NCBI GenBank assembly: GCA_051657945.1
Contig: JBOFLQ010000213.1
Location: 1-40,000, forward strand
Source: Xenococcaceae cyanobacterium
GTDB lineage: Bacteria > Cyanobacteriota > Cyanobacteriia > Cyanobacteriales > Xenococcaceae
Direction: 5' to 3'
DNA length: 40,000 nt
Shown one piece after another: positions 3,638 through 31,525 of this stretch; the stretch's first letter is position 1, and every line of letters starts with the position of its first letter. Position numbers and translations under genes: made by a program. The notes beneath the pieces were generated by a model. It worked only from the letters and a program-made list of their open reading frames with translations. It was not told the origin of the DNA and did no database searches.

Positions 3638-3662
3638 AAAAGTAAGAAATATTTTATCGTAG

Positions 3663-3685
3663 GATGGGCTTGCCCATCTTTTTTT
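3663..3685 (+). terminator. Rho-independent terminator
   Basis: Hairpin 'gatgggc-tt-gcccatc' followed by T7, 26 nt after the stop at 3637. Confidence 0.7.
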
Positions 3686-3719
3686 ATAAGCTGTAGTTTT
3701 TGCCTCTTTTTTAATCCTA

Positions 3720-4748
3720 ATGTCTTCCAAACATAAATATTTACCAGAAGAAATAATTAAACCGGCAACTTTACGCAGTATTTTAGTATCTATCTTTGGT
3801 ACTTCATTAATTTTGATACTTGCTAATTTTGCTGCTAAATATTATTTAAAAATCTTTCCTCAAAATGAAGGTTATTGGCTGATCGATCGAAAATGGGAGA
3901 TGCTAAATAACTTACAGAAACCTGTAGATTGGTTAATTCTTGGCGATTCTAGTTGCAATCAAGGAGTAGTTACTAATGTTTGGCAAGAAAAATTACAAGC
4001 AAGTGCCATCAATCTTTGTACATTTGGAGATACTTTAGCTTTAAATGATGCTTTAATGTTAGCCAAATATATTGAAAAACATGGAGCGCCAAAAAATATT
4101 TTAATTATCCACGTTTATGATATTTGGAATCGCAAAATAAATTGGAATGTCACGGCACAAATTCCCATAAGTATGCAGGAGCTTCAGGAACTGCAACCAC
4201 AATTAAGTCCTAATTTTGAAGAAAGCAAGACAGTTTTTATCGATCGCTATTTGCCACTTTATTCACAAAATGAAAGCTTAAAAAACATCCTCAAAAACCC
4301 TAACAAACTCGGCAAAGCCAATATCGGAAACTTACAAGAGGGAGGATTTATGAGTGAAAACAAAACTAATCCTGGAGAAGTAGAAGCAGATTATAAAAGA
4401 CACATTAATTATGTTAAAAAAGAAAATTTTTATTTATCTTTTGCCAATCAAGAATCTTTAAAATCGATCTTTGCTTTGGCAGAACAACATAATTTCAATG
4501 TTTATCTAACCAACAGTCCAATTTATGAAGGATTGAATAAAAACAAAGACTTTTTAGCTTATTACCAACAAGTAAAAAATACATTTCAAGAATTTGATAA
4601 GCGTAGCGATAAAGTACACTATATTCAAGAATTAATTACTTTTCCCAAAGAACAGATGCAAAATGCCGATCATTTAGTCGAATCATCAGCTAAAGTTTAT
4701 ACTAAAAAATTGGCAGAAAAAATTAAGAGAATAGAGAGTAGGGAATAG
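3720..4748 (+). CDS. Hypothetical membrane-anchored protein with a GDS(L)-like motif
   Basis: 342-aa ORF with an N-terminal TM segment ('LRSILVSIFGTSLILILANFAA'). 'WLILGDSSCNQG' resembles block I of SGNH/GDSL hydrolases. Function is uncertain. Confidence 0.6.
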   Translation: MSSKHKYLPEEIIKPATLRSILVSIFGTSLILILANFAAKYYLKIFPQNEGYWLIDRKWEMLNNLQKPVDWLILGDSSCNQGVVTNVWQEKLQASAINLCTFGDTLALNDALMLAKYIEKHGAPKNILIIHVYDIWNRKINWNVTAQIPISMQELQELQPQLSPNFEESKTVFIDRYLPLYSQNESLKNILKNPNKLGKANIGNLQEGGFMSENKTNPGEVEADYKRHINYVKKENFYLSFANQESLKSIFALAEQHNFNVYLTNSPIYEGLNKNKDFLAYYQQVKNTFQEFDKRSDKVHYIQELITFPKEQMQNADHLVESSAKVYTKKLAEKIKRIESRE

Positions 4749-4905
4749 GGAACAGGGAACACTTCGGCAAGTGGAACAGTGAGCAGTTCGACAGGCTCAC
4801 TGTTTCACCTGTCGAACTGCTCAGTGCATCGCAGGGAATAGGGAACAGGGAACAAGTAGCAAGTAGCAAGTAGCAATGAAATGAACAATGAACCATGAAC
4901 CATGA
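4741..4905. repeat. STRR-type composite repeat enclosing a 19-bp-stem hairpin
   Basis: The 21-mer 'gggaatagggaacagggaaca' occurs at 4741 and again at 4834. Between the copies is an inverted repeat, 4777-4795 / 4808-4826, with 18 of 19 positions paired. It is followed by (aagtagc)x3 and (atgaacM)x4-5 heptamers. It lies between convergent genes and could act as a bidirectional terminator. Confidence 0.85.
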
Positions 4906-4909
4906 ACAA

Positions 4910-5818
4910 TTACGTTAATAAAGGCAAAAACAAAGTCACAAAATAATAAACTAAAGGAGCGGTAAAAACATAACTGTCGGTACGGTCTAAAATTCCGCCG
5001 TGTCCTGGAATTAATTGTCCCGAATCTTTAACTCCTGCATCTCTTTTCATCATTGATTCGGTTAAATCGCCTAAAAGACTGGTAACTCCGATTAAAATTC
5101 CTAACAGTAAACCACTCAAATACCAACTAGGAAAATCAAAATACCAAGCCCCTAATTCGGCAATTAAAATACTACCAACCACTCCAAAAATCGCACCTTC
5201 GACAGTTTTTTTCGGACTGATTTCTGATAGACGAGTACGACCGAAAATTTTGCCCATAGTATAAGCCGCAATATCTGCCGCACAAATACAAGCGATCGCC
5301 AAAAAAGTAATATTTAATGCTTGAGGAAAATGTTTGAGATCTAGCAAAGATTCTGGCCAATATCCATTTAAAGGTAAATTACTAATGCTAATAGTGTTGG
5401 GTAAATTAACTCGCAAACGCACCCAATAAGTAGGCAAATAACCGATATAAAATAAACCTAAAACTGAGGTAGAAATATCGGCGATCGTCGCCATTTTTGG
5501 CTGAAACAACAAATAAAAACAAATAACCGTCCCTGCCAGCGCAAACATAGCATCGGTAAGGTTAGACGCGATCGTTGCCACTAGCAACAATAATTGAGAA
5601 AGTACCAAAGTAGTCTTTGCAGCAGGTTCGATTCCTTTAGCACGAACCAAGAAAAAATACTCTAGTTGCCCTAAAAAAATGAGAATTCCTACGCCGAGGG
5701 TAAAATACCATCCACCCAAAATAATCATTCCCAAAGCAATAAAAATCGCTACTATAGCACTGACTATACGAGACAAAGGCATATTAAAAGTTTTTTTAGA
5801 AGCAAAGGCATTAGACAC
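4910..5818 (-). CDS. cdsA: Phosphatidate cytidylyltransferase (CDP-diglyceride synthase)
   Basis: CdsA signature 'SMMKRDAGVKDSGQLIPGHGGILDRTDSY' in a polytopic membrane protein. Confidence 0.9.
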   Translation of the reverse strand: MSNAFASKKTFNMPLSRIVSAIVAIFIALGMIILGGWYFTLGVGILIFLGQLEYFFLVRAKGIEPAAKTTLVLSQLLLLVATIASNLTDAMFALAGTVICFYLLFQPKMATIADISTSVLGLFYIGYLPTYWVRLRVNLPNTISISNLPLNGYWPESLLDLKHFPQALNITFLAIACICAADIAAYTMGKIFGRTRLSEISPKKTVEGAIFGVVGSILIAELGAWYFDFPSWYLSGLLLGILIGVTSLLGDLTESMMKRDAGVKDSGQLIPGHGGILDRTDSYVFTAPLVYYFVTLFLPLLT

Positions 5819-6551: not shown

Positions 6552-6667
6552 AGGGCATCGGGCATCGGGCATCGGGCAGAAGATAAGTAGCAAGTAGCAA
6601 GTTACTTTTAAATGCGTGACTTTTTCCCTGCGCCCCTGCACCTCTGCACCTCTGCACCTCTGCTCCC
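6552..6667. repeat. STRR-type tandem repeats
   Basis: (gggcatc)x3, (aagtagc)x2 and (cacctctg)x3 fill the spacer between cbiT and the decarboxylase gene. Confidence 0.85.
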
Positions 6668-8161
6668 CTACTGCCTACTCCCCGATATAACCTTTAATGT
6701 TTTTAAACTAGGATCGCTACAACCTGTAATCCTACCCCCTAAAGCAAGAACTTGTTTCAAATAGTCGATCGCGTCTTGGGAAATTACCTCTCCTGGCATC
6801 AATACAGGAATTCCTGGTGGATAGGGACAAATTAGTTCGGCACTAATGCGATCGCTCGCTCGAATGATGGCGATCGTTTCGGTTGGGGCAAAGTATGCTT
6901 CGCGAGGGGTGATTGAAGCGATCGAGGTAGGGGCAGTGCCACGGCGAGCGCTAATCTGAGGCATCCTCGAAAGATTCCGCACTTTTTGTGTCTGCCTCAT
7001 TGCTAGAGAAGAAAAAGCTCGAACTAATCGATCGATATCTTCTAAAGTGTTGCCCAAACTAATGATAAAAGTTAAATGTTTGAGTAAGGGTAATTCTGCG
7101 GTAACTCCAAGTTGTTCGTGTAAAATTGCATCTGCTTCGTAACCGCTTAAACCGAGTTGAGAAACATCAACTGTTAATCTGGTGCGATCGAGATTCTTAA
7201 AACCTGGTGTTGTTTGTTGGGGCAATTCCAAAACAGATAAACCTTGAATTTTAGAGAGTCTAATTCTTGCTTCTTCTGCTAAGTGTAAAGTCTTTGCCAT
7301 CAATTCTTCACCTTGCAGTGCCATTTGTTGTCTGGCAGCATCTAAAGAAGCTAAAAGTATGTAACTAGGGCTGGTAGACTGTACTAATTGCAAAGCTTTG
7401 CTAATGTTTTCACCATTGATGCAATCGCCCTTGATGTGCAACATTGATGCTTGCGTCATCGCACTCAAAACTTTATGAGTCGATTGCACGACCAGATCGG
7501 CACCAGCAGCAAGGGCATCCATGGGAAGATTTTTATGAAAGTGAAAATGAGCGCCATGTGCTTCATCGACTAACAGGGGAATATTGTATTGATGAGTGAG
7601 TTCGGCGATCGCCTCAATATCGCCACACACGCCCTGATAGGTAGGATATAACAAGATCGCTGCTTTGGCATCGGGATGCTGCTTGAGGGCGGTCTTAACT
7701 GCCTCTGGAGTGACGCTGTAAGCTAAGTCAGCCTCTCGATCGTATTCGGGATTGATAAATATTGGCATCGCACCAGAAAGAATTAAACCCGCGATCGCAG
7801 AAGTATGAATGTTGCGCGGTAAAATAATTTTTTCGTTACTTTTACAAGTTGCCAAAATTGCTGCAATAATACCGCAGGTAGAACCGTTGACTAAAAACCA
7901 AGTACGATCTGCACCGAATGCTTTTGCTGCTAATTGCTGCGCCGACTCGATCGCCGCTTCTGGTGCGAATAAATTATCTAATTCGGGTAATTCTGGTAGA
8001 TCGGCTTTAAACACCAATTCACCCAATAAATTAACTAGATTTGGCGAAATTCCCCGTCCTCGTTTATGTCCTGGTGCATAGAAAGCTGTATCAGAGCGAT
8101 CGACCAATTCTTTTAAAGTGTCTATCAAAGGTGTGTTTGCTTGTGAATCGTTATCGCTCAT
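6668..8161 (-). CDS. PLP-dependent Orn/Lys/Arg decarboxylase family protein
   Basis: 'FYAPGHKRG', 'FLVNGSTCG' and the PLP-lysine block 'VQSTHKVLSAMTQASMLH' are typical of the major domain of this family. Substrate is not determinable by eye. Confidence 0.85.
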   Translation of the reverse strand: MSDNDSQANTPLIDTLKELVDRSDTAFYAPGHKRGRGISPNLVNLLGELVFKADLPELPELDNLFAPEAAIESAQQLAAKAFGADRTWFLVNGSTCGIIAAILATCKSNEKIILPRNIHTSAIAGLILSGAMPIFINPEYDREADLAYSVTPEAVKTALKQHPDAKAAILLYPTYQGVCGDIEAIAELTHQYNIPLLVDEAHGAHFHFHKNLPMDALAAGADLVVQSTHKVLSAMTQASMLHIKGDCINGENISKALQLVQSTSPSYILLASLDAARQQMALQGEELMAKTLHLAEEARIRLSKIQGLSVLELPQQTTPGFKNLDRTRLTVDVSQLGLSGYEADAILHEQLGVTAELPLLKHLTFIISLGNTLEDIDRLVRAFSSLAMRQTQKVRNLSRMPQISARRGTAPTSIASITPREAYFAPTETIAIIRASDRISAELICPYPPGIPVLMPGEVISQDAIDYLKQVLALGGRITGCSDPSLKTLKVISGSRQ

Positions 8162-9278: not shown

Positions 9279-10370
9279 ATGTTAAGAGCCGGAATTGTTG
9301 GATTGCCCAATGTCGGTAAATCTACATTGTTTAACGCCCTAGTTGCTAACGCCAAAGCTGAAGCTGCTAACTTTCCCTTCTGTACGATCGAACCGAACGT
9401 CGGTGTCGTTTCTGTCCCCGACGAACGTTTGGACGTACTCGCCAAAATCTCGCAATCCGAGAAAATTGTACCGACCAGAATCGAATTTGTCGATATTGCT
9501 GGTTTGGTTAAAGGTGCGAGTAAGGGAGAAGGTTTGGGCAATCAATTTCTCGCCAACATCCGAGAAGTTGACGCGATCGTTCACGTCGTGCGTTGCTTTG
9601 ACAATGACGATATCATTCACGTTTCTGGTTCGATCGATCCGCTTCGAGATATCGAAATAATTAATTTAGAGCTAGCTTTAGCCGATCTCGCTCAAATCGA
9701 ACGCCGTATCGATCGCACTCGCAAACAAGCACGCGCCAATAAAGAAGCACAAGCGGAAATGGTAGTGCTAGAAAAATTAGCTGCCGTTTTAAACGAAGGC
9801 AAATCGGCACGTCAAGTAAGTCTGACCGAAGAAGAGCAAGAAGTAATTAAAAATCTGGGTTTATTAACCAATAAACCCGTAACTTATGCCGCCAACGTTT
9901 CTGAAGACGATTTAGCCAGCGGTAATCAATGGGTAGAACAAGTCAAACAATTTGCTAGCCAATCCGATTCTAAAGTAGTAATAGTTTCTGCCCAAGTAGA
10001 ATCGGAATTAGTGGAATTATCAGAAGAAGAAAAACTAGATTTTCTTGACTCTCTAGGTGTAAAAGAAGGAGGGTTAAAATCTTTAATTAGAGCGACCTAC
10101 GAATTATTGGGTTTGCGTACCTACTTGACTACAGGGCCTCAAGAAACTCGCGCTTGGACGATCTTGAATGGCATGAAAGCACCACAAGCAGCAGGTGTCA
10201 TTCATACAGATTTCGAACGCGGTTTTATTCGAGCAGAAACAGTTGCCTATAAAGATTTGGTTGCTACCGGTTCGATGACAGCAGCTAAGGAAAAAGGACT
10301 GGTGCGATCGGAAGGAAAAGAATACATCGTGCAGGAAGGAGATGTGCTTTTGTTCAGGTTTAACGTTTAG
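9279..10370 (+). CDS. ychF: Redox-regulated ATPase YchF
   Basis: 'GIVGLPNVGKSTLFNAL' P-loop, 363 aa, and a C-terminal TGS-like end 'EYIVQEGDVLLFRFNV'. Confidence 0.92.
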   Translation: MLRAGIVGLPNVGKSTLFNALVANAKAEAANFPFCTIEPNVGVVSVPDERLDVLAKISQSEKIVPTRIEFVDIAGLVKGASKGEGLGNQFLANIREVDAIVHVVRCFDNDDIIHVSGSIDPLRDIEIINLELALADLAQIERRIDRTRKQARANKEAQAEMVVLEKLAAVLNEGKSARQVSLTEEEQEVIKNLGLLTNKPVTYAANVSEDDLASGNQWVEQVKQFASQSDSKVVIVSAQVESELVELSEEEKLDFLDSLGVKEGGLKSLIRATYELLGLRTYLTTGPQETRAWTILNGMKAPQAAGVIHTDFERGFIRAETVAYKDLVATGSMTAAKEKGLVRSEGKEYIVQEGDVLLFRFNV

Positions 10371-10586
10371 ATCGAGGAAACAACGACGTTTTTTAATTTG
10401 AGGGTGAATTAGCTTTTAAACCCTAATTCATCATCCTCATCCCATAATTCGTAATTTATAGCTCCTATTTGTAATTTTTTTTCACTACCAAAAATAGGAA
10501 GGTAAAGAATATATTGCGAGCAAAGCATCGTGCTTTGATTCAGAGGTAATGTTTAAGTAATTCCACTGAATTAAGCACGATAGCTT

Positions 10587-11069
10587 ATGGTTCTTCACAC
10601 ATTTTCTAACGTTGGTTATACAGATCGAGCCAGACTTCGACGCAAATTTCCTCCCAAATATTGTAAAAGTCAGGGAAATTTAGAAATATCGATCGCGGGT
10701 TTAAAATTTCAAAGCTCGAATCAAGCAGTATGCATCAATCGTATTAATCGAATCGCTCTCAGAAAACCACCCAAACTATGGATATTTGCCGTGCAGTACG
10801 GATCTTTATTGGCGATCGGCTTTTCGATCGCCAAAAGACTGATGGGAAATGAGGTGACTCCGATCGATCTCTTTTTTAATGGGCTGAGCGGCGCTTTATT
10901 TGGGTTTTTTTGGTGGTTGTTATATTTCAAACAATTTTACTGGATTGTCATTGATTATCCAGAATCTGGAGCGAGTCATCGAGCTTATTTCTGGGTGAGA
11001 GGGGATTTTGGTATTGGTAAAACCAGAAAGTTGTTTGCCACGATCAGACAAACTTTTGTCGATGATTGA
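10587..11069 (+). CDS. Hypothetical membrane protein
   Basis: 160-aa ORF with two hydrophobic segments ('WIFAVQYGSLLAIGFSI', 'GALFGFFWWLLYF'). No family recognised, and the start is uncertain. Confidence 0.4.
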   Translation: MVLHTFSNVGYTDRARLRRKFPPKYCKSQGNLEISIAGLKFQSSNQAVCINRINRIALRKPPKLWIFAVQYGSLLAIGFSIAKRLMGNEVTPIDLFFNGLSGALFGFFWWLLYFKQFYWIVIDYPESGASHRAYFWVRGDFGIGKTRKLFATIRQTFVDD

Positions 11070-11091
11070 ATAAATACTCTTGACTTTTGAC

Positions 11092-11180
11092 AGGGGACAG
11101 GGAATAGGGAGCAGAATACTATTACTTAATTACTTGTTATTTATTACTTATTACTTATTACCTAACTCCCAGCCCCTAAC
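11092..11180. repeat. STRR-type repeats (G-rich heptamers, ATTACTT repeats, C-rich heptamers)
   Basis: 'ggggacagggaatagggagc' is followed by about 6 copies of (attactt) and then 'ctaactcccagcccctaac'. The G-rich left arm and C-rich right arm are partly complementary. Confidence 0.75.
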
Positions 11181-11369
11181 TTTTTCTAATCATATTACTC
11201 TTCTTGACACTCCCCCGAATACATTCAACTTCGCTTACGCTTCGTCGAATTAAATTCGGGGGATTCTTGGTTCACCGAGTCTCCGGTCAATAGTTACCTC
11301 ATTGAAAATAATGTATGCGATCGAAACTTTTTATCAGCAACTAAATTAAAGTTTTAAACTTAAAATTAT

Positions 11370-12017
11370 CTAATTACCAGAAACAAAAGGCAACGGTATC
11401 GATCGCAGTGCAAATACAGCACCGATGAGCAAACCAAAGATAACAAAAGAACCGAGTATGCCTATTGCGATCGCCATACCATCTTTTTCGAGAATTCCCA
11501 AACTAATTAAGACGACAACAATAGCTGGAAGAAAATTGCCAAAAGGAATTGGTAAAGTAATTACGATCGCCAGAATAAAGATAATTACACCTAATAAACG
11601 CTCGATCGCGGGAGAAATCATAAACTCCCAGCGAGGACGAATCAAGTGTTCGACTTTATTTAGATAAGGTAAGCTTTTACGAACGATTTTCTCAAAATCT
11701 TTTCGTTTGAACGAGCGATCGCCGATCCATTTAGGCAACCATGGTTTACGAAAGCCTAAAACTAACTGTCCAGAAACTAAGACTAAGGGAATACCAATAA
11801 TTGCTGAAACTCCAGCGATCGGCAGTGGTAAAGCCTCTGGTAGGGAGCAAATAAATAAAGTCCAACCAAAAGCGCGATCGCCTAATCCTAACAATAAATT
11901 TCTAAAATAAACTTTTTCTCCCTGTTGCTGTTCTAAAATATCTAACAGTAATTGTGAGGTATGAAGACCTTTATTTGAATCTTTATTTACTCTAGCTTTT
12001 GTGTTTTGATTAGTCAT
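11370..12017 (-). CDS. exoD: ExoD-family exopolysaccharide synthesis membrane protein
   Basis: 'LGDRAFGWTLFICSLPEALPLPIAGVSAIIGIPLVLVSGQLVLGFRKPWLPKW' matches my recollection of the ExoD family pattern. Confidence 0.75.
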   Translation of the reverse strand: MTNQNTKARVNKDSNKGLHTSQLLLDILEQQQGEKVYFRNLLLGLGDRAFGWTLFICSLPEALPLPIAGVSAIIGIPLVLVSGQLVLGFRKPWLPKWIGDRSFKRKDFEKIVRKSLPYLNKVEHLIRPRWEFMISPAIERLLGVIIFILAIVITLPIPFGNFLPAIVVVLISLGILEKDGMAIAIGILGSFVIFGLLIGAVFALRSIPLPFVSGN

Positions 12018-12549
12018 CTATTTTTTAAAATATTCATTATAAATTAGGCATTGTAAAATCGAAATCCGAAAATACAGTGCATGTTTTAATAAAAAAGTAT
12101 TTTTTTCTAGCTTAAATAAATTTTGAATCCTTTAGCTTGTTTTTGTAATCTACCAATCGTCTGAAAAATTTATTTCGATCGCCCGAAACAACTATCCAGT
12201 TACCGCAATAGTTATGAAGTCAAACTCACGCCCGACTCAAATCTAGATGGTTAACTTATAGTTCCTGTCTTTTGTCAATGAATTTGTTTACTGGTTACCG
12301 AATTCGAGCGCCGAAAATAACTCTTACGTTATCGTAAGAGTCAATAAAACAAACTCACGCCCGACTTTAATCTAGATGATTAATTTCTAGCTCTCACCTT
12401 TTTTCAATCAATTTGTTCAAGAGTCGTGTTCATCGATCGCCCGAAACAACTATCCAGTCATCGCAATAGTTGTTCGGTCAAACTCACGCCCGACTCAAAT
12501 CTAGATGGTTAACTTATAGTTGTTGTCTTTTTTTAATGAACTTGTTTAC

Positions 12550-13888
12550 CGAAAATTTGGGTAATTGCGCCCCGTCCTTCTAGGACGGCTTTCTTTAGAT
12601 CTATGCTAGAATAGATTACGTCAGACAAAACGACGTAACTATGTTGGTATTCGAGGCAAAACTTGAGGGATTGAAAGAGCAGTATGGCAAGCTGGATGAA
12701 GCCATTCGTACTGCTCGTTTTGTCCGTAATTCTTGCCTGAAATACTGGATGGATAACCGCTCTAGGATCGGACGATATAATTTGAGTGCATATTGTGCTG
12801 TGTTGGCGAAAGAGTTTTCTTGGGCAAACCAACTCAACTCTCAAGCTAGGCAAGCATCGGCTGAAAGAGCTTGGTCGGCAATTGCCAGATTCTTTGATAA
12901 CTGCAAAAAAAACAAACCAGGTAAGAAAGGATATCCAAGATTTAAAAAGGAACAAACTCATGGCTCTGTAGAATACAAAACTACGGGCTGGAAACTTTCT
13001 CAATGTCGTAGATACATCACTTTCACTGATGGTTTTGGCGCTGGTACTTTCCTCATGTGGGGAACTCGCGATCTGCATTTTTACCAACTCAAGCAAATTA
13101 AACGAGTCAGGGTAGTTCGTCGTGCTGATGGCTACTACACGCAGTTTTGTCTCGACCAAGAGCGATTGTCCAAACGAGAACCAACATCTAAAACTATTGG
13201 TCTTGACGTTGGACTGAGTCATTTTTATACAGATAGCGACGGGCAAACTATTGAAAACCCCCGACACCTGAGAAAGAGTGAAAAGTCCCTCAAGCGTCTT
13301 TCTCGTCGTATGTCTAAGACCCAAAAAAGGTCGAAAAACCGAGCCAAGTTTAGGAATAAACTGGCAAGAAAGCACCTCAAAGTAAGTAGACAGCGTAAAG
13401 ATTTTGCCGTGAAGTTGGCAAGATGCGTAGTCCAGTCTAACGACTTGGTAGCCTATGAGGATTTGAAGGTGCGTAATATGGTTAGAAATCGGCATCTGGC
13501 TAAATCCATATCCGATGCAGCTTGGACAACTTTTCGTACTTGGGTTGAGTATTTTGGCAAGGTTTTTGGTGTGGTCACGGTTGCTGTGCCACCTCACTAC
13601 ACCAGCCAAAATTGCTCTAGCTGTGGCAAGGTTGTCAAAAAATCTCTGAGTGTCAGGACTCATATTTGTCATCATTGTGGGCATACGCAAGATAGGGATT
13701 GGAACGCTGCGAGAAATATATTAGAGAAAGGATTAAGTACGGTGGGACACATCGGAACATACGCCTCTGGAGACATCGACCTCTGCTTGAGTGAGAAAAA
13801 TCCTTCAAGTAAGTCGGGTCGTGGAAAGAGGAAGCCTAAAGAGCAATCTTTGGAATCCCCGTCGCGCAATTCGCGGGGAGGATGTCAA
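12550..13888 (+). mobile_element. IS200/IS605-family element carrying only tnpB (IS1341-like, no tnpA)
   Basis: 1339 bp, inserted directly 3' of TTAC (12546-12549) and ending in TCAA (13885-13888), with no target duplication. The left end has a subterminal hairpin ccgtcc/ggacgg (about 12571-12587). The right end has a hairpin tccccg/cgggga (about 13856-13879). Joining the two flanks restores the 129-bp repeat phase. Confidence 0.85.
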
Positions 13889-13972
13889 TTGTTAGCGAAT
13901 TCGATCGCCGAAAATAACTCTTACGATAACGTAAGGGTCAATAAAACAAACTCATGCCCGACTCCAATCTAG
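12641..13972 (+). CDS. tnpB: TnpB RNA-guided endonuclease (RuvC + zinc finger); ORF runs past the element end
   Basis: RuvC motifs 'IGLDVGL', 'VAYEDLKV' and 'RDWNAARNI', plus the zinc finger 'CSSCG...CHHCG', are all intact. The first in-frame stop is at 13970-13972, 84 nt beyond the inferred right end. Confidence 0.9.
   Translation: MLVFEAKLEGLKEQYGKLDEAIRTARFVRNSCLKYWMDNRSRIGRYNLSAYCAVLAKEFSWANQLNSQARQASAERAWSAIARFFDNCKKNKPGKKGYPRFKKEQTHGSVEYKTTGWKLSQCRRYITFTDGFGAGTFLMWGTRDLHFYQLKQIKRVRVVRRADGYYTQFCLDQERLSKREPTSKTIGLDVGLSHFYTDSDGQTIENPRHLRKSEKSLKRLSRRMSKTQKRSKNRAKFRNKLARKHLKVSRQRKDFAVKLARCVVQSNDLVAYEDLKVRNMVRNRHLAKSISDAAWTTFRTWVEYFGKVFGVVTVAVPPHYTSQNCSSCGKVVKKSLSVRTHICHHCGHTQDRDWNAARNILEKGLSTVGHIGTYASGDIDLCLSEKNPSSKSGRGKRKPKEQSLESPSRNSRGGCQLLANSIAENNSYDNVRVNKTNSCPTPI
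13700..13904 (+). ncRNA. Putative omega/reRNA of TnpB (scaffold in the tnpB 3' end and right end; guide from the flank)
   Basis: Called by analogy with characterised TnpB systems such as ISDra2. The right-end hairpin lies at 13856-13879, and the guide would be the roughly 16 nt after TCAA ('ttgttagcgaattcga'). The 5' boundary is a guess. Confidence 0.3.
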
Positions 13973-14118
13973 ATGCTTAACTTATAGTTGTTGTCTTTTT
14001 TCAATGAACTTGTTAAAGAGTCGTGTTCGTCGATCGCCCGAAACAACCATTGAACGAGCGCAATAGTTTTTGAAGCAAACTCATCACTTACGTTGCCCAA
14101 TGCCCGCTGCCCAATCCC

Positions 14119-15435
14119 CTAATTAGTTACAATTCGACTTGGATCGCCGAGATATGGACTAACCGAACTAGTTACGGGTGTTATGACTGGCGTTAAATTC
14201 CAATGTTGCGACAACCGTTTTAGAAATAAATCTTGTTGCTTGCGAAACTGGCTGATATCATTACCGTGATTGATAATGGCAAACCAAACTTGACCCCGAT
14301 CGCGCGTGGGAATTACCCCAGCTAAAGCACTAACTGTATTGAGAGTTCCCGTTTTAATCGTCGTACCGAGGGGAATAGTTCGATTAATCATCGTTCCTAC
14401 TTTATCCCGTCCCGAAGTAGGAAATAGATCGCGAACGCCTAAAGACTGAGATCGATATTTATCTTCGATCGCCATTAACATTGCCGTCGCCGCACGAGCA
14501 GAAATGCGATTTTCTAATGCCAATCCCGAACCGTTAAGTAACTGAATTTCATTTTCTGGAACATTAGCAGCTAAAGCTGCGACAGTTGCGACTACTTGTG
14601 CGCCACCGACAGAATGAGCCAGCATTTCCGCCATCTCGTTATTGCTGTAAACATTCATCTGTTTGACAATTTCTGTCATAGATAAAGAACGATGACGCAG
14701 CAATAATTTGGCAGAATTGGAAAAATTGTTGACAACTTCTACTTTACCAGCGATCGCCACTTGCGGTTTAGCAGTTCCTGGCGGCATGACATAATATTGT
14801 CTGGTTAGTGCTGGCGACCAAAGTTGGTTATTTATTGCTTGCTTGAACGATTCGCTTGCCATTTTGGCATCAGATTTATAATTCATGTAGAAATTACCAT
14901 AGACAAGTAAATTGCCCTTTACCTGGCGAATTCCCAAACGATTGAGAGCATTCCCGATCGCGATCGCCTCTTCCCAAACAAATAAAGGATCGCCCGAGCC
15001 TTTAATTATTAAATCTCCTTGTAAAATTCCATTTTCAATTTTGGCAGTTTCGTTAGTATAAATTTGGGTTTCAAATTGATGCTTAGTTCCCCATTTATCC
15101 AACGCAGCTAATGAAGTCGCAATTTTGGTCAAAGATGCCGCCGAAGCTGGAATATTGCCTTGAAAGTTAGCTAATTCCGCCCATTGGGAGCGAATCCAAA
15201 TTCTTTGTTCTCCTGCTGCAAAACCTTTATCCGTTAAATCTTGAAGATATTGCTTGACAAATTGCTCTACGGTGGGATCGTTTTGAGTGGGAAGAGCGAA
15301 AATTGCTGTCTTATCCCATGACAAAGTTTGTAGTTGTTCTACTTTTGTGGATGCTTGTCCAAAAAAATTTAGCAACAATCCCATTAAACTAACACCAATT
15401 ACATCCAGCATTTTCTCGACTCCCCAGTCAGTCAA
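14119..15435 (-). CDS. D-alanyl-D-alanine carboxypeptidase/endopeptidase, PBP4 (S13) family
   Basis: Has the SxxK ('SLTK'), SxN ('YSNN') and KTG ('KTGT') penicillin-binding motifs. The ATG at 15411 ('MLDVIGVSLMGLLL', signal-peptide-like) is a plausible alternative to the TTG at 15435. Confidence 0.85.
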   Translation of the reverse strand: MTDWGVEKMLDVIGVSLMGLLLNFFGQASTKVEQLQTLSWDKTAIFALPTQNDPTVEQFVKQYLQDLTDKGFAAGEQRIWIRSQWAELANFQGNIPASAASLTKIATSLAALDKWGTKHQFETQIYTNETAKIENGILQGDLIIKGSGDPLFVWEEAIAIGNALNRLGIRQVKGNLLVYGNFYMNYKSDAKMASESFKQAINNQLWSPALTRQYYVMPPGTAKPQVAIAGKVEVVNNFSNSAKLLLRHRSLSMTEIVKQMNVYSNNEMAEMLAHSVGGAQVVATVAALAANVPENEIQLLNGSGLALENRISARAATAMLMAIEDKYRSQSLGVRDLFPTSGRDKVGTMINRTIPLGTTIKTGTLNTVSALAGVIPTRDRGQVWFAIINHGNDISQFRKQQDLFLKRLSQHWNLTPVITPVTSSVSPYLGDPSRIVTN

Positions 15436-23160: not shown

Positions 23161-23284
23161 GTTCATTGTTCATTGTTCATTGTTCGTTGCTACTTGCTAC
23201 TTTCCAAAGCAAACCCTAACCCCTAATCCCTACTCCCTAATCCCTAATCCCTAATCCCTAACCCCTGCTCCCTATTCCCTATTC
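23161..23284. repeat. STRR composite repeat filling the mysB-mysC spacer
   Basis: (gttcatt)x3-4, (gctactt)x2, then about 10 copies of ccctaaY/ccctaYt heptamers that end 2 nt before the mysC ATG. Confidence 0.9.
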
Positions 23285-27332: not shown

Positions 27333-27449
27333 AGGGCTAGGGAATAAGTAATAAGTAATAAGATACTTCTAACTTTTGATTTTCCCTAACCCCTAACCCC
27401 TAACCCCTACTCCCTAGCCCTTAGCCCCTAGCCCCTACTCCCTAACCCC
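27333..27449. repeat. STRR composite repeat between the response regulator and histidine kinase genes
   Basis: 'gggctagggaat', (aagtaat)x3, a spacer, then about 9 C-rich heptamers (ccctaac / ccctagc / ccctact), giving C3-4 tracts on the + strand. Confidence 0.9.
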
Positions 27450-27457
27450 TTTAAACA

Positions 27458-28779: not shown

Positions 28780-28938
28780 TTAACCAGGACAATAAGATGG
28801 TTGAGTAATAGTTCTTTGACCGGTATTGGGTGTAGGATAACGAGTCAGTACGATTTGACCCTGAGCATTAACTGCTATTCCTCTTGCAGGAATAATTTGA
28901 TCAGATGATACATGTTTGCGATTGCGTAGCACGACCGT
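28780..28938 (-). pseudogene. Out-of-frame C-terminal tail of the TpsA-like gene
   Basis: A 52-codon open segment in a different frame from the main ORF encodes '...DQIIPARGIAVNAQGQIVLTRYPTPNTGQRTITQPSYCPG*'. It resembles the tail I recall after 'TGRGGLP' in cyanobacterial FHA-type proteins (A.GW..N..G.V.L ... C). Confidence 0.45.
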
Positions 28939-31525
28939 TCATGAGATCGCTCGTCTTAACTTCCTCTGCTCCTCCGCTTCTGGGCTCCTCCGCTTCTGGG
29001 CTTTCCTGCCCACCAGACACTCTAATCACCTCACTCTTAAGCGGTTCGGTTGGAGAAGGAGGCATACCGCCACGTCCTGTAATTGTAAAGCTATTGCCTT
29101 GTGCTACATTACCTGAAGCACTGCAAGTTGATGCTGCTGTTTCATCTGGAGCGATAATATTTTGAGGTGTTTGTACTTTTTCTAAAGAAAGATTTGATTC
29201 TTCATAGTCATTTCTGTCCGAATTGTTTGACTGAGAATTCTCAGAAGTAGAATTAATGTCATTTTCTCCGTTATTGCGGATTTGTTTTAGATCTTCGCTA
29301 GGTAAGAATTGTTGAATGCGATCGCGATCGAATCCATATACACTTTCAACTTTGAGCGCGATTGTTCCACCTTGTCCTTGTGCCGCAGTAGCAATAATAT
29401 CGTTATTTTGATTGGGGAAAGCAACAATAAATCCGTTAGGAGAATTAATATTAATATTCCCTCCATTAGCATTACCAGTTACCTGTGCGGAGATAGTGCC
29501 ACCGTTACGCATTGATAGGATATTAGTGAAGTTTAGATTAATGTCACCGCGAGGATCGCCAGCAGCGCCTTCTCCTAAAATACCGACACCGATTCGACCT
29601 CCATTTGTAAGATCTAAATTTCTTGTCAAAATATTTACCCCACCAGCATTTCCTTTGCCTGTCTTTTCTACTTCAGTGGCGATCGAACTAGCAACACCAT
29701 CTTTGCTTCCATCAACTCTAATGGTGTCAGAGGCATTAATGTTAACCTTTCCTGCATTTCCTTCCCCTTGGATAACAGAACCGATCTGAGCGCCATTGCT
29801 AATAGATAAGTTTTTGGTGGTAATTTCAATGCCCCCGCCATTTCCTTTCCCATTAAGACCAACTCCACTTCCAATTGAGGTTGGAACCTCATTTATCCGT
29901 CCATCAACAGTAATATTGTTAGAGGCATTAATTTTAATTACACCTCCGTTTCCACCTACTCCTATTGTTTTAAAGACACCAGCACCAATCTGACCTGCAT
30001 TAGTAACATCTAAGTTTTTAGTAGTGATATCAATTACACCAGCATTTCCTTGACCTTCACCACTTGTTCCACTAGTAATGCCACTAAAAATACCGTTGTT
30101 TTTGTTGTTGCCATCTATTCTGACAGTGTCAGAGTCTTTGATTGTGACATTTCCTGCGTTTCCTTCTCCCAAATTACTAGCACTTACCTGAGCTACATTA
30201 TTCACAGATAAATTTTTAGTCGTCAGAAAAATATCGCCAGCATTTCCGATCGCTTTGGGACGAGTTATCTTTCCAGTTACTTCGTCTTGTTTTTGGTTTC
30301 GTATGATACTTGTAATTCCGATAAAACTACCAATTCCGTCTCCTTCGACGGAAATGCGATCGCCAGCGTTAATCGTGATATTACCTCCATTTCCTTCTTT
30401 AAAATTATCGGCGCTAATTTGACCTCCATTAGTGAGAGATAAATTATTGGTAGTAATAGAAATATTGCCAGCATTTCCAATGCCGACTACGGAAGTAGCG
30501 ATCGAGCTACGATTGTCATCTTGACTTCCGTCAACAATGATTCGATCGGAAGCATTAATTCTGACTTTATTTCCATCTCCATCTGTGTTGCTCGATATTC
30601 TAGAGCCATCTTTGAGCAAAACCGAACTAGTAGCATCAACGTTAATGTTTCCTGCTTGTGCTGTTATTGAACCTAGATTTTGAGCTATTCCTGCTTCAAG
30701 AGAACTAATTCCCGACATATTTAAATTATTAGCATTAACGGCGATCGAACCGCCACCGCCAGCACTCACATTAACTGACGCGCCATTATTTAAAGTAATA
30801 TCTCCTCGTTGCACTCCTACAGGAAAGTTCAAACTACCATCGCCAGATAAACCTACTCTTCCCACGCCAGTGAGAGAACCTAATTCTATTTTTCCTCCTG
30901 GTGCGATTAGTTTACCGCGATCGAAATCGAGATTGCCGCCGACAAGTGAAATATTTTTGTTTGGTTTTACTTCCAATCCAGTTGCAGAATTATTGGCAAT
31001 TGGTTGGGGATTATCACGAAGATTTAATCCGATCGGTGCATTTATAGTTAGTAAGGGTTTTGTTTGAGTATTGGTAGCGCTAAATTCTGTTCCGTCGATA
31101 AAGGAAAGACTATCGGCAGTACTTCCCAAAAATGAACCGCCGATATCTAGTCTGGCATTCTCTCCAAAAATAATTCCTGCGGGATTGATTAAAAATAAGT
31201 TGGCGCTACCATTGGCTTTTATTAATCCATTAATATCCGATACCGAACCGCCTGTAACTCGATTGATAATATTTTCGACATCGGGAGCATTATTAAAATT
31301 CGCCGAACCGCCATCAGGTACGGAAAAGTTACCGAAACTGTGATAGAGATTATTTCCAGCGCGATTGCCTTCGTTAATTTCAAAATTGCTGTTATCTGGT
31401 GAGGCTACGTTTGTATTCGTAGTGCCATCAGCAGAAATATCTTGTGCTATGGCAGGACTAGAAGCAAATAAAGAAAAAAAAGTAAAACAACCAAGCTTAA
31501 GTAATATCGAACTAGCTTTTATCAT
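28901..31525 (-). CDS. TpsA/filamentous-haemagglutinin-type secreted beta-helix protein
   Basis: Signal peptide, then an N-terminal TPS (haemagglutination activity) domain ('NNLYHSFGNFSV', 'NIINRVTGG', 'LFLINPAGIIFG'). This is followed by about 6 copies of a roughly 60-aa 'GNAGnI.ITT.NL.vtNGaqIsa...GeGNAGnv.InA.d.i.vdG' repeat and the motif 'TGRGGMPPSP'. Confidence 0.85.
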   Translation of the reverse strand: MIKASSILLKLGCFTFFSLFASSPAIAQDISADGTTNTNVASPDNSNFEINEGNRAGNNLYHSFGNFSVPDGGSANFNNAPDVENIINRVTGGSVSDINGLIKANGSANLFLINPAGIIFGENARLDIGGSFLGSTADSLSFIDGTEFSATNTQTKPLLTINAPIGLNLRDNPQPIANNSATGLEVKPNKNISLVGGNLDFDRGKLIAPGGKIELGSLTGVGRVGLSGDGSLNFPVGVQRGDITLNNGASVNVSAGGGGSIAVNANNLNMSGISSLEAGIAQNLGSITAQAGNINVDATSSVLLKDGSRISSNTDGDGNKVRINASDRIIVDGSQDDNRSSIATSVVGIGNAGNISITTNNLSLTNGGQISADNFKEGNGGNITINAGDRISVEGDGIGSFIGITSIIRNQKQDEVTGKITRPKAIGNAGDIFLTTKNLSVNNVAQVSASNLGEGNAGNVTIKDSDTVRIDGNNKNNGIFSGITSGTSGEGQGNAGVIDITTKNLDVTNAGQIGAGVFKTIGVGGNGGVIKINASNNITVDGRINEVPTSIGSGVGLNGKGNGGGIEITTKNLSISNGAQIGSVIQGEGNAGKVNINASDTIRVDGSKDGVASSIATEVEKTGKGNAGGVNILTRNLDLTNGGRIGVGILGEGAAGDPRGDINLNFTNILSMRNGGTISAQVTGNANGGNININSPNGFIVAFPNQNNDIIATAAQGQGGTIALKVESVYGFDRDRIQQFLPSEDLKQIRNNGENDINSTSENSQSNNSDRNDYEESNLSLEKVQTPQNIIAPDETAASTCSASGNVAQGNSFTITGRGGMPPSPTEPLKSEVIRVSGGQESPEAEEPRSGGAEEVKTSDLMNGRATQSQTCII
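28968..29002. repeat. Perfect 16-nt tandem duplication (2.2 copies) inside the TpsA-like CDS
   Basis: 'gctcctccgcttctgg' at 28968-28983 and again at 28984-28999, plus 3 further matching nt. The unit length is not a multiple of 3. Confidence 0.95.

Follow-up and report, generated by a model that had tools for sequence, protein, structure and literature searches.

What is a 129-bp sequence doing in the spacer between two cyanobacterial genes, where it is repeated head to tail with an exact period and carries hairpins of two alternating kinds? We addressed this question in a 40,000-nt stretch of a Xenococcaceae metagenome-assembled genome (MAG; GenBank assembly GCA_051657945.1, contig JBOFLQ010000213.1, positions 1 to 40,000, forward strand), hereafter called the window. 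The array occupies positions 12175-14084, between exoD and a gene for a PBP4-type D-Ala-D-Ala carboxypeptidase, and consists of four full units and one decayed unit, with an insertion sequence (IS) of the IS200/IS605 family lodged in the third. We tentatively regard it as a structured, non-coding minisatellite restricted to one lineage, which amplification and gene conversion have shaped and which is passively transcribed on the minus strand. This is the explanation that we prefer, although we hold it with less than even confidence.

An exact 129-bp array between exoD and a PBP4-type gene

Tandem Repeats Finder reported a period of 129, 2.9 copies and 0% indels over 12175-12549, and a profile derived from the units matched the four full units and part of a fifth at the intervals listed in Table 1, with no further match outside the array in the whole window. 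In silico excision of positions 12550-13888 (1339 bp), which hold the IS, brought back the exact 129-bp register, as a first-pass annotation of this DNA had proposed. The five unit starts given in that annotation are all in register, but its placement of the array's end at 14118 did not hold, as similarity in unit 5 stops at about 14084. The sequence from 14085 to 14118 instead resembles TGCCCRA heptamers and is also present in a relative that lacks the array.

Two kinds of unit alternate along the array. In the profile alignment, the two full A-type units (A and A′) agree at 116/129 positions and the two B-type units (B and B′) at 110/129, as compared with 86-93/129 between A and B units; since identity is higher within than between types, the 258-bp A+B higher-order repeat that had been suggested is real. 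The 34-nt core is found four times at up to 3 mismatches, against 0 expected. Within it, the palindrome ATCTAGAT (12238-12245 and equivalent positions) is invariant in 4/4 full units and is followed by GTTAAC and then by AACT-TAT-AGTT; three more copies of this palindrome lie elsewhere in the window.

The array is non-coding, and its description as unassigned was likewise correct. It contains no open reading frame (ORF) of at least 60 aa other than the end of tnpB that reads out of the IS, again as annotated, stops interrupt every one of the six frames, and the units share no conserved small ORF. A search against Rfam (4227 families) returned nothing at the gathering threshold, and matches at E values of up to 10 were at chance level. 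A coding function or a type I toxin was rejected on account of stops in six frames and of ORFs (at least 8 aa) that differ in phase, length and sequence, none being both hydrophobic and conserved; no tRNA or transfer-messenger RNA was found. Pfam assignments agree with the earlier view that the array fills the spacer between the PBP4-type gene and exoD, both on the minus strand.

Table 1. Coordinates of the array, of its parts and of the adjoining features in the window
Feature	Position	Strand	Remarks
Unit 1 (U1, type A)	12175-12303		129 bp; hairpin arms within 12187-12216
Unit 2 (U2, type B)	12304-12432		129 bp; perfect 9-bp inverted repeat 12320-12328 / 12333-12341
Unit 3 (U3, type A′), first 117 bp	12433-12549		Inverted repeat 12445-12453 / 12466-12474; IS right after TTAC
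Unit 3, last 12 bp (TTGTTAGCGAAT)	13889-13900		Directly 3′ of IS right end
Unit 4 (U4, type B′)	13901-14029		129 bp; hairpin 13917-13938 scored terminator-like, minus strand
Unit 5 (U5, type A″)	14030-14084		Decayed partial unit: head, degenerate hairpin, core start
Conserved 34-nt core	12221-12254, 12350-12383, 12479-12512, 13947-13980		Each with invariant 8-bp palindrome ATCTAGAT
Promoter-like TTCATT-N16-TATAAG	12255-12282, 12513-12540, 13981-14008	-	3 matches vs 0.08 expected
exoD	11370-12017	-	Downstream of array on minus strand; Pfam ExoD (PF06055), E=6e-57
PBP4-type D-Ala-D-Ala carboxypeptidase	14119-15435	-	Upstream of array on minus strand; Pfam Peptidase_S13, E=1e-42
IS200/IS605-family element, tnpB only	12550-13888	+	1339 bp; Pfam OrfB_IS605 and Cas12f1-like_TNB
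tnpB ORF, 443 aa	12641-13972	+	No internal stop within IS; runs 84 nt past right end into units 3 and 4

Occurrence in the population, in relatives and in sequence collections

Assemblies from the same population contain the array as well. An independent assembly, L001, corresponds to window positions 9587-13073 at 100% identity, and a further one, L009, matches the window without a mismatch over 3.4 kb outside the IS, its one difference in the array being a single-nucleotide polymorphism at 14023, within the unit 4 tail. Between the two, each half of the array and each junction with the IS is reproduced.

In the closest relative (L008), whose exoD is 92.4% identical at the nucleotide level, the site of the array is empty. 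There, the 3′ end of the PBP4 gene (94.4% identical to 14093-14181) meets the block upstream of exoD (96.6% identical to 12110-12167) across about 45 nt of filler that resembles TGCCCRA heptamers, and a search of this spacer yielded no match to the unit (nhmmer E=3.9). More distant relatives have different genes beside PBP4 or exoD and lack the unit. The array thus combines properties of a minisatellite: non-coding units of constant period, arranged head to tail, whose presence differs between close relatives. Its decayed terminal unit and the tolerated IS insertion support the same reading.

Wider searches were also negative. Three patterns from different parts of the unit gave 0 matches in 185,579 species-representative genomes and in JGI metagenome contigs, with the proviso that relatives diverged beyond the tolerance of these unit-derived patterns would escape them. 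BLASTN against plasmids and phages found no unit, and viral contigs contained only chance 17-mers. Dispersed copies were likewise not found in the rest of the window or in the collections of species-representative genomes, metagenomes, viral contigs, plasmids and phages.

The flanks of the array present two features of their own. The 58-nt block at 12110-12167, which adjoins the array about 100-150 nt upstream of exoD, is more similar to its counterpart in the closest relative (96.6%) than are the exoD coding sequence (92.4%) and the promoter-proximal DNA (~84%), and could serve exoD as a conserved leader or regulatory element. On the other flank, the PBP4 stop codon is closely followed by repeats resembling TGCCCRA heptamers (14093-14118), which form a longer tract at about 55-134 of L008. 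The GCCCGA of the units resembles these heptamers, but significant homology could not be demonstrated. To the eye, the tail, head and T-rich block of the unit looked similar to the PBP4 3′ end and the DNA upstream of exoD. An origin of the unit in situ from its flanks was rejected, since local alignments attribute this apparent likeness to chance (18/500 dinucleotide shuffles at best, with control regions comparable).

Variation among units and the explanations for it

The hairpins of the two unit types had been described as unrelated sequences exchanged at a fixed position. The position is indeed kept, as both hairpins have the same axis of symmetry (unit positions i+j=55), but they are not unrelated. 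A and B have five stem pairs in common, one of which is altered on both sides, from A-T to C-G; the B hairpin gains four additional inner pairs through substitutions at positions of the A loop, and the A hairpin has additional outer pairs. The common axis and common stem pairs identify the two hairpins as homologous variants, so that talk of an exchange was overstated. Other details of the unit also required amendment: the type-specific tail measures about 16 nt rather than 18, and CGCCCGA, said to lie on both sides of every hairpin, does so in U1 and U3, with U2 having it on the 3′ side only, U5 on the 5′ side only and U4 on neither.

Among the four full units, 50/129 columns are variable, and they are unevenly spread; the hairpin accounts for 15 of them in its 30 columns. 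Once hairpin and tail are set aside, the units do not group by type. In the T-rich block, U4 differs from U3 at 1/33 positions, as against 9-10 between U2 and each of the other units, a mosaic in which gene conversion is visible; such conversion can, as a candidate explanation, account for the uneven variation in general. The tail might have been thought a copy of part of the hairpin in its own unit, but this was rejected because only U1 reached 9/500 and the other units did not.

We picture the history of a minisatellite at this locus as follows. A unit of about 129 bp with a quasi-palindrome would have been duplicated and its copies would have diverged into A and B, after which the 258-bp A+B dimer would have been amplified by unequal recombination or replication slippage. 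In-register gene conversion would keep the head, core and T-rich block alike, the hairpin interior and the 16-nt tail remaining type-specific. Template switching in quasi-palindromes can mimic compensatory change, and here it could have yielded the apparently compensatory changes in the hairpins without selection. An IS608-like, TnpB-only element inserted later, 3′ of the only TTAC in unit 3. As the array lies between two minus-strand genes, passive transcription from the PBP4 gene is most likely, and in the read-through transcript the B-type hairpin with its U-run may act as an intrinsic terminator or a 3′-end stabiliser ahead of exoD. This reading calls for no dedicated product acting in trans.

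Several observations weigh against so passive a history. Variation is depleted in the core (unit positions 46-80; 5/35 variable columns, Fisher p=5e-4) and concentrated in the tail (114-129; 12/16, p=0.002), which is near-random between types. Not one indel separates the four full units despite their 50 variable columns, whereas neighbouring intergenic DNA has accumulated about 4 indel events per 30 substitutions relative to L008. This absence suggests a constraint on unit length, and none of the explanations offered here fully accounts for so strict a length in units whose tail and hairpin interior were replaced. The hairpins have also stayed paired, in 75% (plus strand) and 85% (minus strand) of pair cells versus 26-48% with slid partners. 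Read on the minus strand, the promoter-like motif, conserved segment and stem-loop have an order that fits the layout of a small transcription unit. Finally, the units differ from one another by 10-33%, which is more than the divergence from the relative without the array, and the array must therefore be old and retained, or have been imported from an unsampled donor.

A second explanation, which we consider possible though doubtful, is that the units are tandem sibling genes for small RNAs (sRNAs), transcribed from the minus strand from a predicted promoter in the T-rich block, with RNAs of about 65 nt that would act in trans. The proposed promoter is TTCATT-N16-TATAAG, or else has TAAGTT as its -10 element, and transcripts would begin at about unit position 74. 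The core would serve as an unpaired seed of some 30 nt (AUCUAGAUUUGAGUCGGGCGUGAGUUUG) and the hairpin as a terminator, with one gene per unit or per A+B dimer. The motif is far more frequent on this strand than expected (Table 1), and the conservation pattern matches the anatomy of such a gene, with a nearly constant seed, a stem-loop that is varied yet paired and a near-random tail. G-U pairs favour the minus strand, where a UAUUUU run follows the B-type hairpins of U2 and U4, and a generic terminator scan flagged a single site in the array, the B′ hairpin on that strand. Moreover, the IS lies in the predicted inter-gene spacer, 4 nt upstream of the -35-like hexamer, and tandem sRNA genes with promoters of their own have a precedent in NsiR1 (PMC9045159).

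The details of the array are less obliging to this explanation. TATAAG lacks the conserved final T, the -35 element is weak, and a generic sigma-70 scan found no promoter inside the array on either strand, leaving the TTCATT-N16-TATAAG copies unflagged. The motif is absent from U2, which has no TATAAG; where it occurs, in U1, U3 and U4, the spacer is N16 throughout, as had been noted for U3 and U4, and not N15 in U1. The A-type hairpins, with their AU-rich stems, 12-nt loops and lack of a U-run, would be poor terminators, and only in U2 is the whole-unit fold more stable than those of shuffled sequences. The empty site in the closest relative, the lack of a homologue in the searched collections and the toleration of the IS all speak against sRNA genes, which in addition have no requirement for an exact spacer length. 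When the putative RNAs were folded in duplex with the window's translation-initiation regions, the duplexes were long and non-specific and gave no information on targets. With five related sequences, the covariation in the hairpin is only suggestive: three pairs are altered on both sides, and 10-18 of 500 shuffles matched the observed score.

What hangs on the choice differs considerably. As a minisatellite and nothing more, the array would be of little consequence, although it would offer a tidy bacterial example of an intergenic A+B higher-order repeat in which gene conversion can be seen and an IS608-like insertion can be dated. If the units are sRNA genes, they could constitute a previously undescribed family of the non-heterocystous Pleurocapsales/Xenococcaceae with a common seed of ~30 nt and two alternating terminator modules, immediately upstream of a gene for exopolysaccharide, a proposal that we likewise find rather improbable. 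It would be a second, independently evolved tandem sRNA array in cyanobacteria, with a gene arrangement of the NsiR1 type, situated beside the cell-envelope genes PBP4 and exoD, and would imply that arrays of tandem sRNAs can arise and disappear within a genus.

Two further explanations deserve mention. Perhaps the array provides phased sites for a dimeric DNA-binding protein, with ATCTAGAT, GTTAAC, AACT-TAT-AGTT and/or the inverted repeats as targets and a geometry like that of centromere or operator arrays. The invariance of the palindrome and a strict spacing without indels, even across replaced sequence, would suit such a role; we nevertheless judge it quite unlikely, given that no partition, replication or regulator gene adjoins the array and its neighbours are housekeeping genes, that 129 bp is not an integral number of helical turns, that the palindrome also occurs outside the array, and that the closest relative does without it. 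Or perhaps a non-autonomous mobile element, a palindrome-associated or miniature inverted-repeat transposable element of IS200/IS605 type or a rolling-circle element, was multimerised at the site. The empty site in the closest relative, the absence of target-site duplications and terminal inverted repeats, the position of the array's ends near hairpins of the same orientation, and the occurrence of TTAC 19-20 nt 5′ of the U2 hairpin and of TCAA after most hairpins, which recalls IS608 geometry, are compatible with this idea. It is nonetheless very unlikely. The offsets of TTAC and TCAA are inconsistent between units, which also led us to reject IS608-like ends within them; no dispersed copies were found in any searched collection and no HUH transposase gene lies nearby; and the relative's site contains different filler DNA and no clean excision junction. 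As for derivation from an IS200/IS605 element, which had been proposed earlier, the units are unlike the ends of the resident IS, and the unit profile found no match inside 12550-13888 or elsewhere in the window, a result that concerns this resident element only.

The interrupting element, neighbouring repeats and known systems

The element within unit 3, as distinct from the repeat itself, resembles IS608. It follows a TTAC and has TCAA as its terminal nucleotides, its left-end hairpin (12572-12588) starts 22 nt inside and its right-end hairpin stops 10 nt before the element's end, which is the end geometry described for IS608 (PMC3201880). A tnpB gene is present and there is no target duplication. 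Unlike IS608, the element has no tnpA, and the tnpB stop codon is not inside it; the hairpins that it carries bear no relation to the array's hairpins. As the stop is reached 28 codons into the array, the C-terminus of TnpB is set by where the element has inserted. A TnpB guide would be read from the sequence that adjoins the right end on its 3′ side (TTGTTAGCGAATTCGA), which differs at 2/16 positions from the equivalent uninterrupted site in U1 (TTTAC followed by TGGTTACCGAATTCGA).

The octamer and hexamer content of the locus distinguishes the IS from its surroundings. CGATCG occurs 170 times in the window, of which 166 copies lie outside array and IS, four in the array and none in the IS, and the array is host-like, unlike the IS, in both its GC content and its density of CGATCG. 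On this evidence, the array seems native to the genome and the IS a recent arrival. The window has 45 GCGATCGC (HIP1) sites, none of them in the IS. A foreign origin was also sought through palindrome avoidance and rejected, as the window shows no avoidance of TCTAGA, GTTAAC or CTAG and so gives no signal.

Although the two additional assemblies of the population reproduce the array halves and the IS junctions, the interior of the IS differs in L009, where positions 3661-4560 correspond to window positions 12990-13888 with 69 differing positions inside the IS (13001-13544). These differences probably reflect a chimeric assembly with another IS copy or conversion between copies. In practical terms, the array breaks MAG assemblies at this locus.

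Other repeats occur in the window. Arrays with a 7-bp period (e.g., CCCTAAT, CCCTAAC and GGGCATC) lie between genes at 4729-4910, 6553-6669, 23161-23281 and 27343-27450 and resemble the short tandemly repeated repetitive (STRR) sequences known from cyanobacteria. An 874-aa ORF at 28901-31525 on the minus strand contains diverged internal repeats of ~84 nt, spaced ~190-430 nt apart (family D3), and its product is probably a repeat-domain protein.

Of the known systems, NsiR1 of Nostoc sp. PCC 7120 is the one with which the first-pass annotation had compared the array. Its sRNA genes are arranged in tandem, each repeat having its own DIF1 (TCCGGA) promoter, and the array lies upstream of hetF, with the first copy antisense to that gene (PMC9045159). 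The likeness to the 129-bp array extends to the diverged peripheral copies and to a unit interpretable as promoter, ~60-nt RNA and stem-loop, so that the comparison stands as far as minus-strand layout and conservation pattern are concerned. Membership in the family was rejected, as there is no DIF1 motif (0 occurrences of TCCGGA in the 40-kb window), no neighbouring hetF and no heterocystous host. NsiR1 belongs to heterocyst-forming cyanobacteria and is conserved in many of their genera, whereas the 129-bp unit comes from a Xenococcaceae MAG and has no relative in the collections searched; Xenococcaceae are, to our knowledge, not heterocystous. The contexts differ too, since the array adjoins PBP4 and exoD and its putative RNAs would lie on the same strand as these genes.

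Several other structured repeats were weighed and set aside. Judged by their generally known features, integron attC sites do not fit, as the hairpin arms do not conform to the core sites RYYYAAC/GTTRRRY, and nor do CRISPR, TIGR or type III antitoxin arrays, for which a period of 129 bp is too long and the associated genes are missing. A type III toxin-antitoxin module of the ToxI kind was additionally rejected because the downstream gene encodes ExoD (PF06055) and not a toxin endoribonuclease. The Ibs/Sib type I toxin-antitoxin repeats come close in being tandem, intergenic, about 130-140 bp long and associated with a small RNA (PMC2887945), and differ in that the units described here have no conserved small hydrophobic ORF on either strand.

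The array is also akin to minisatellites, or variable-number tandem repeats (VNTRs), and to repetitive extragenic palindromes and bacterial interspersed mosaic elements (REP/BIME), all of which lack coding capacity, separate genes that point the same way, contain hairpins and differ in presence or copy number between close relatives. Minisatellites and REP/BIME repeats can act as terminators or mRNA stabilisers. REP/BIME sequences are short, dispersed in hundreds of copies and of alternating orientation, and typical VNTR units are homogeneous. The array differs from both in its 129-bp units, which are confined to a single locus, diverge by 10-33% without any variation in length, and are organised into an A+B higher-order repeat.

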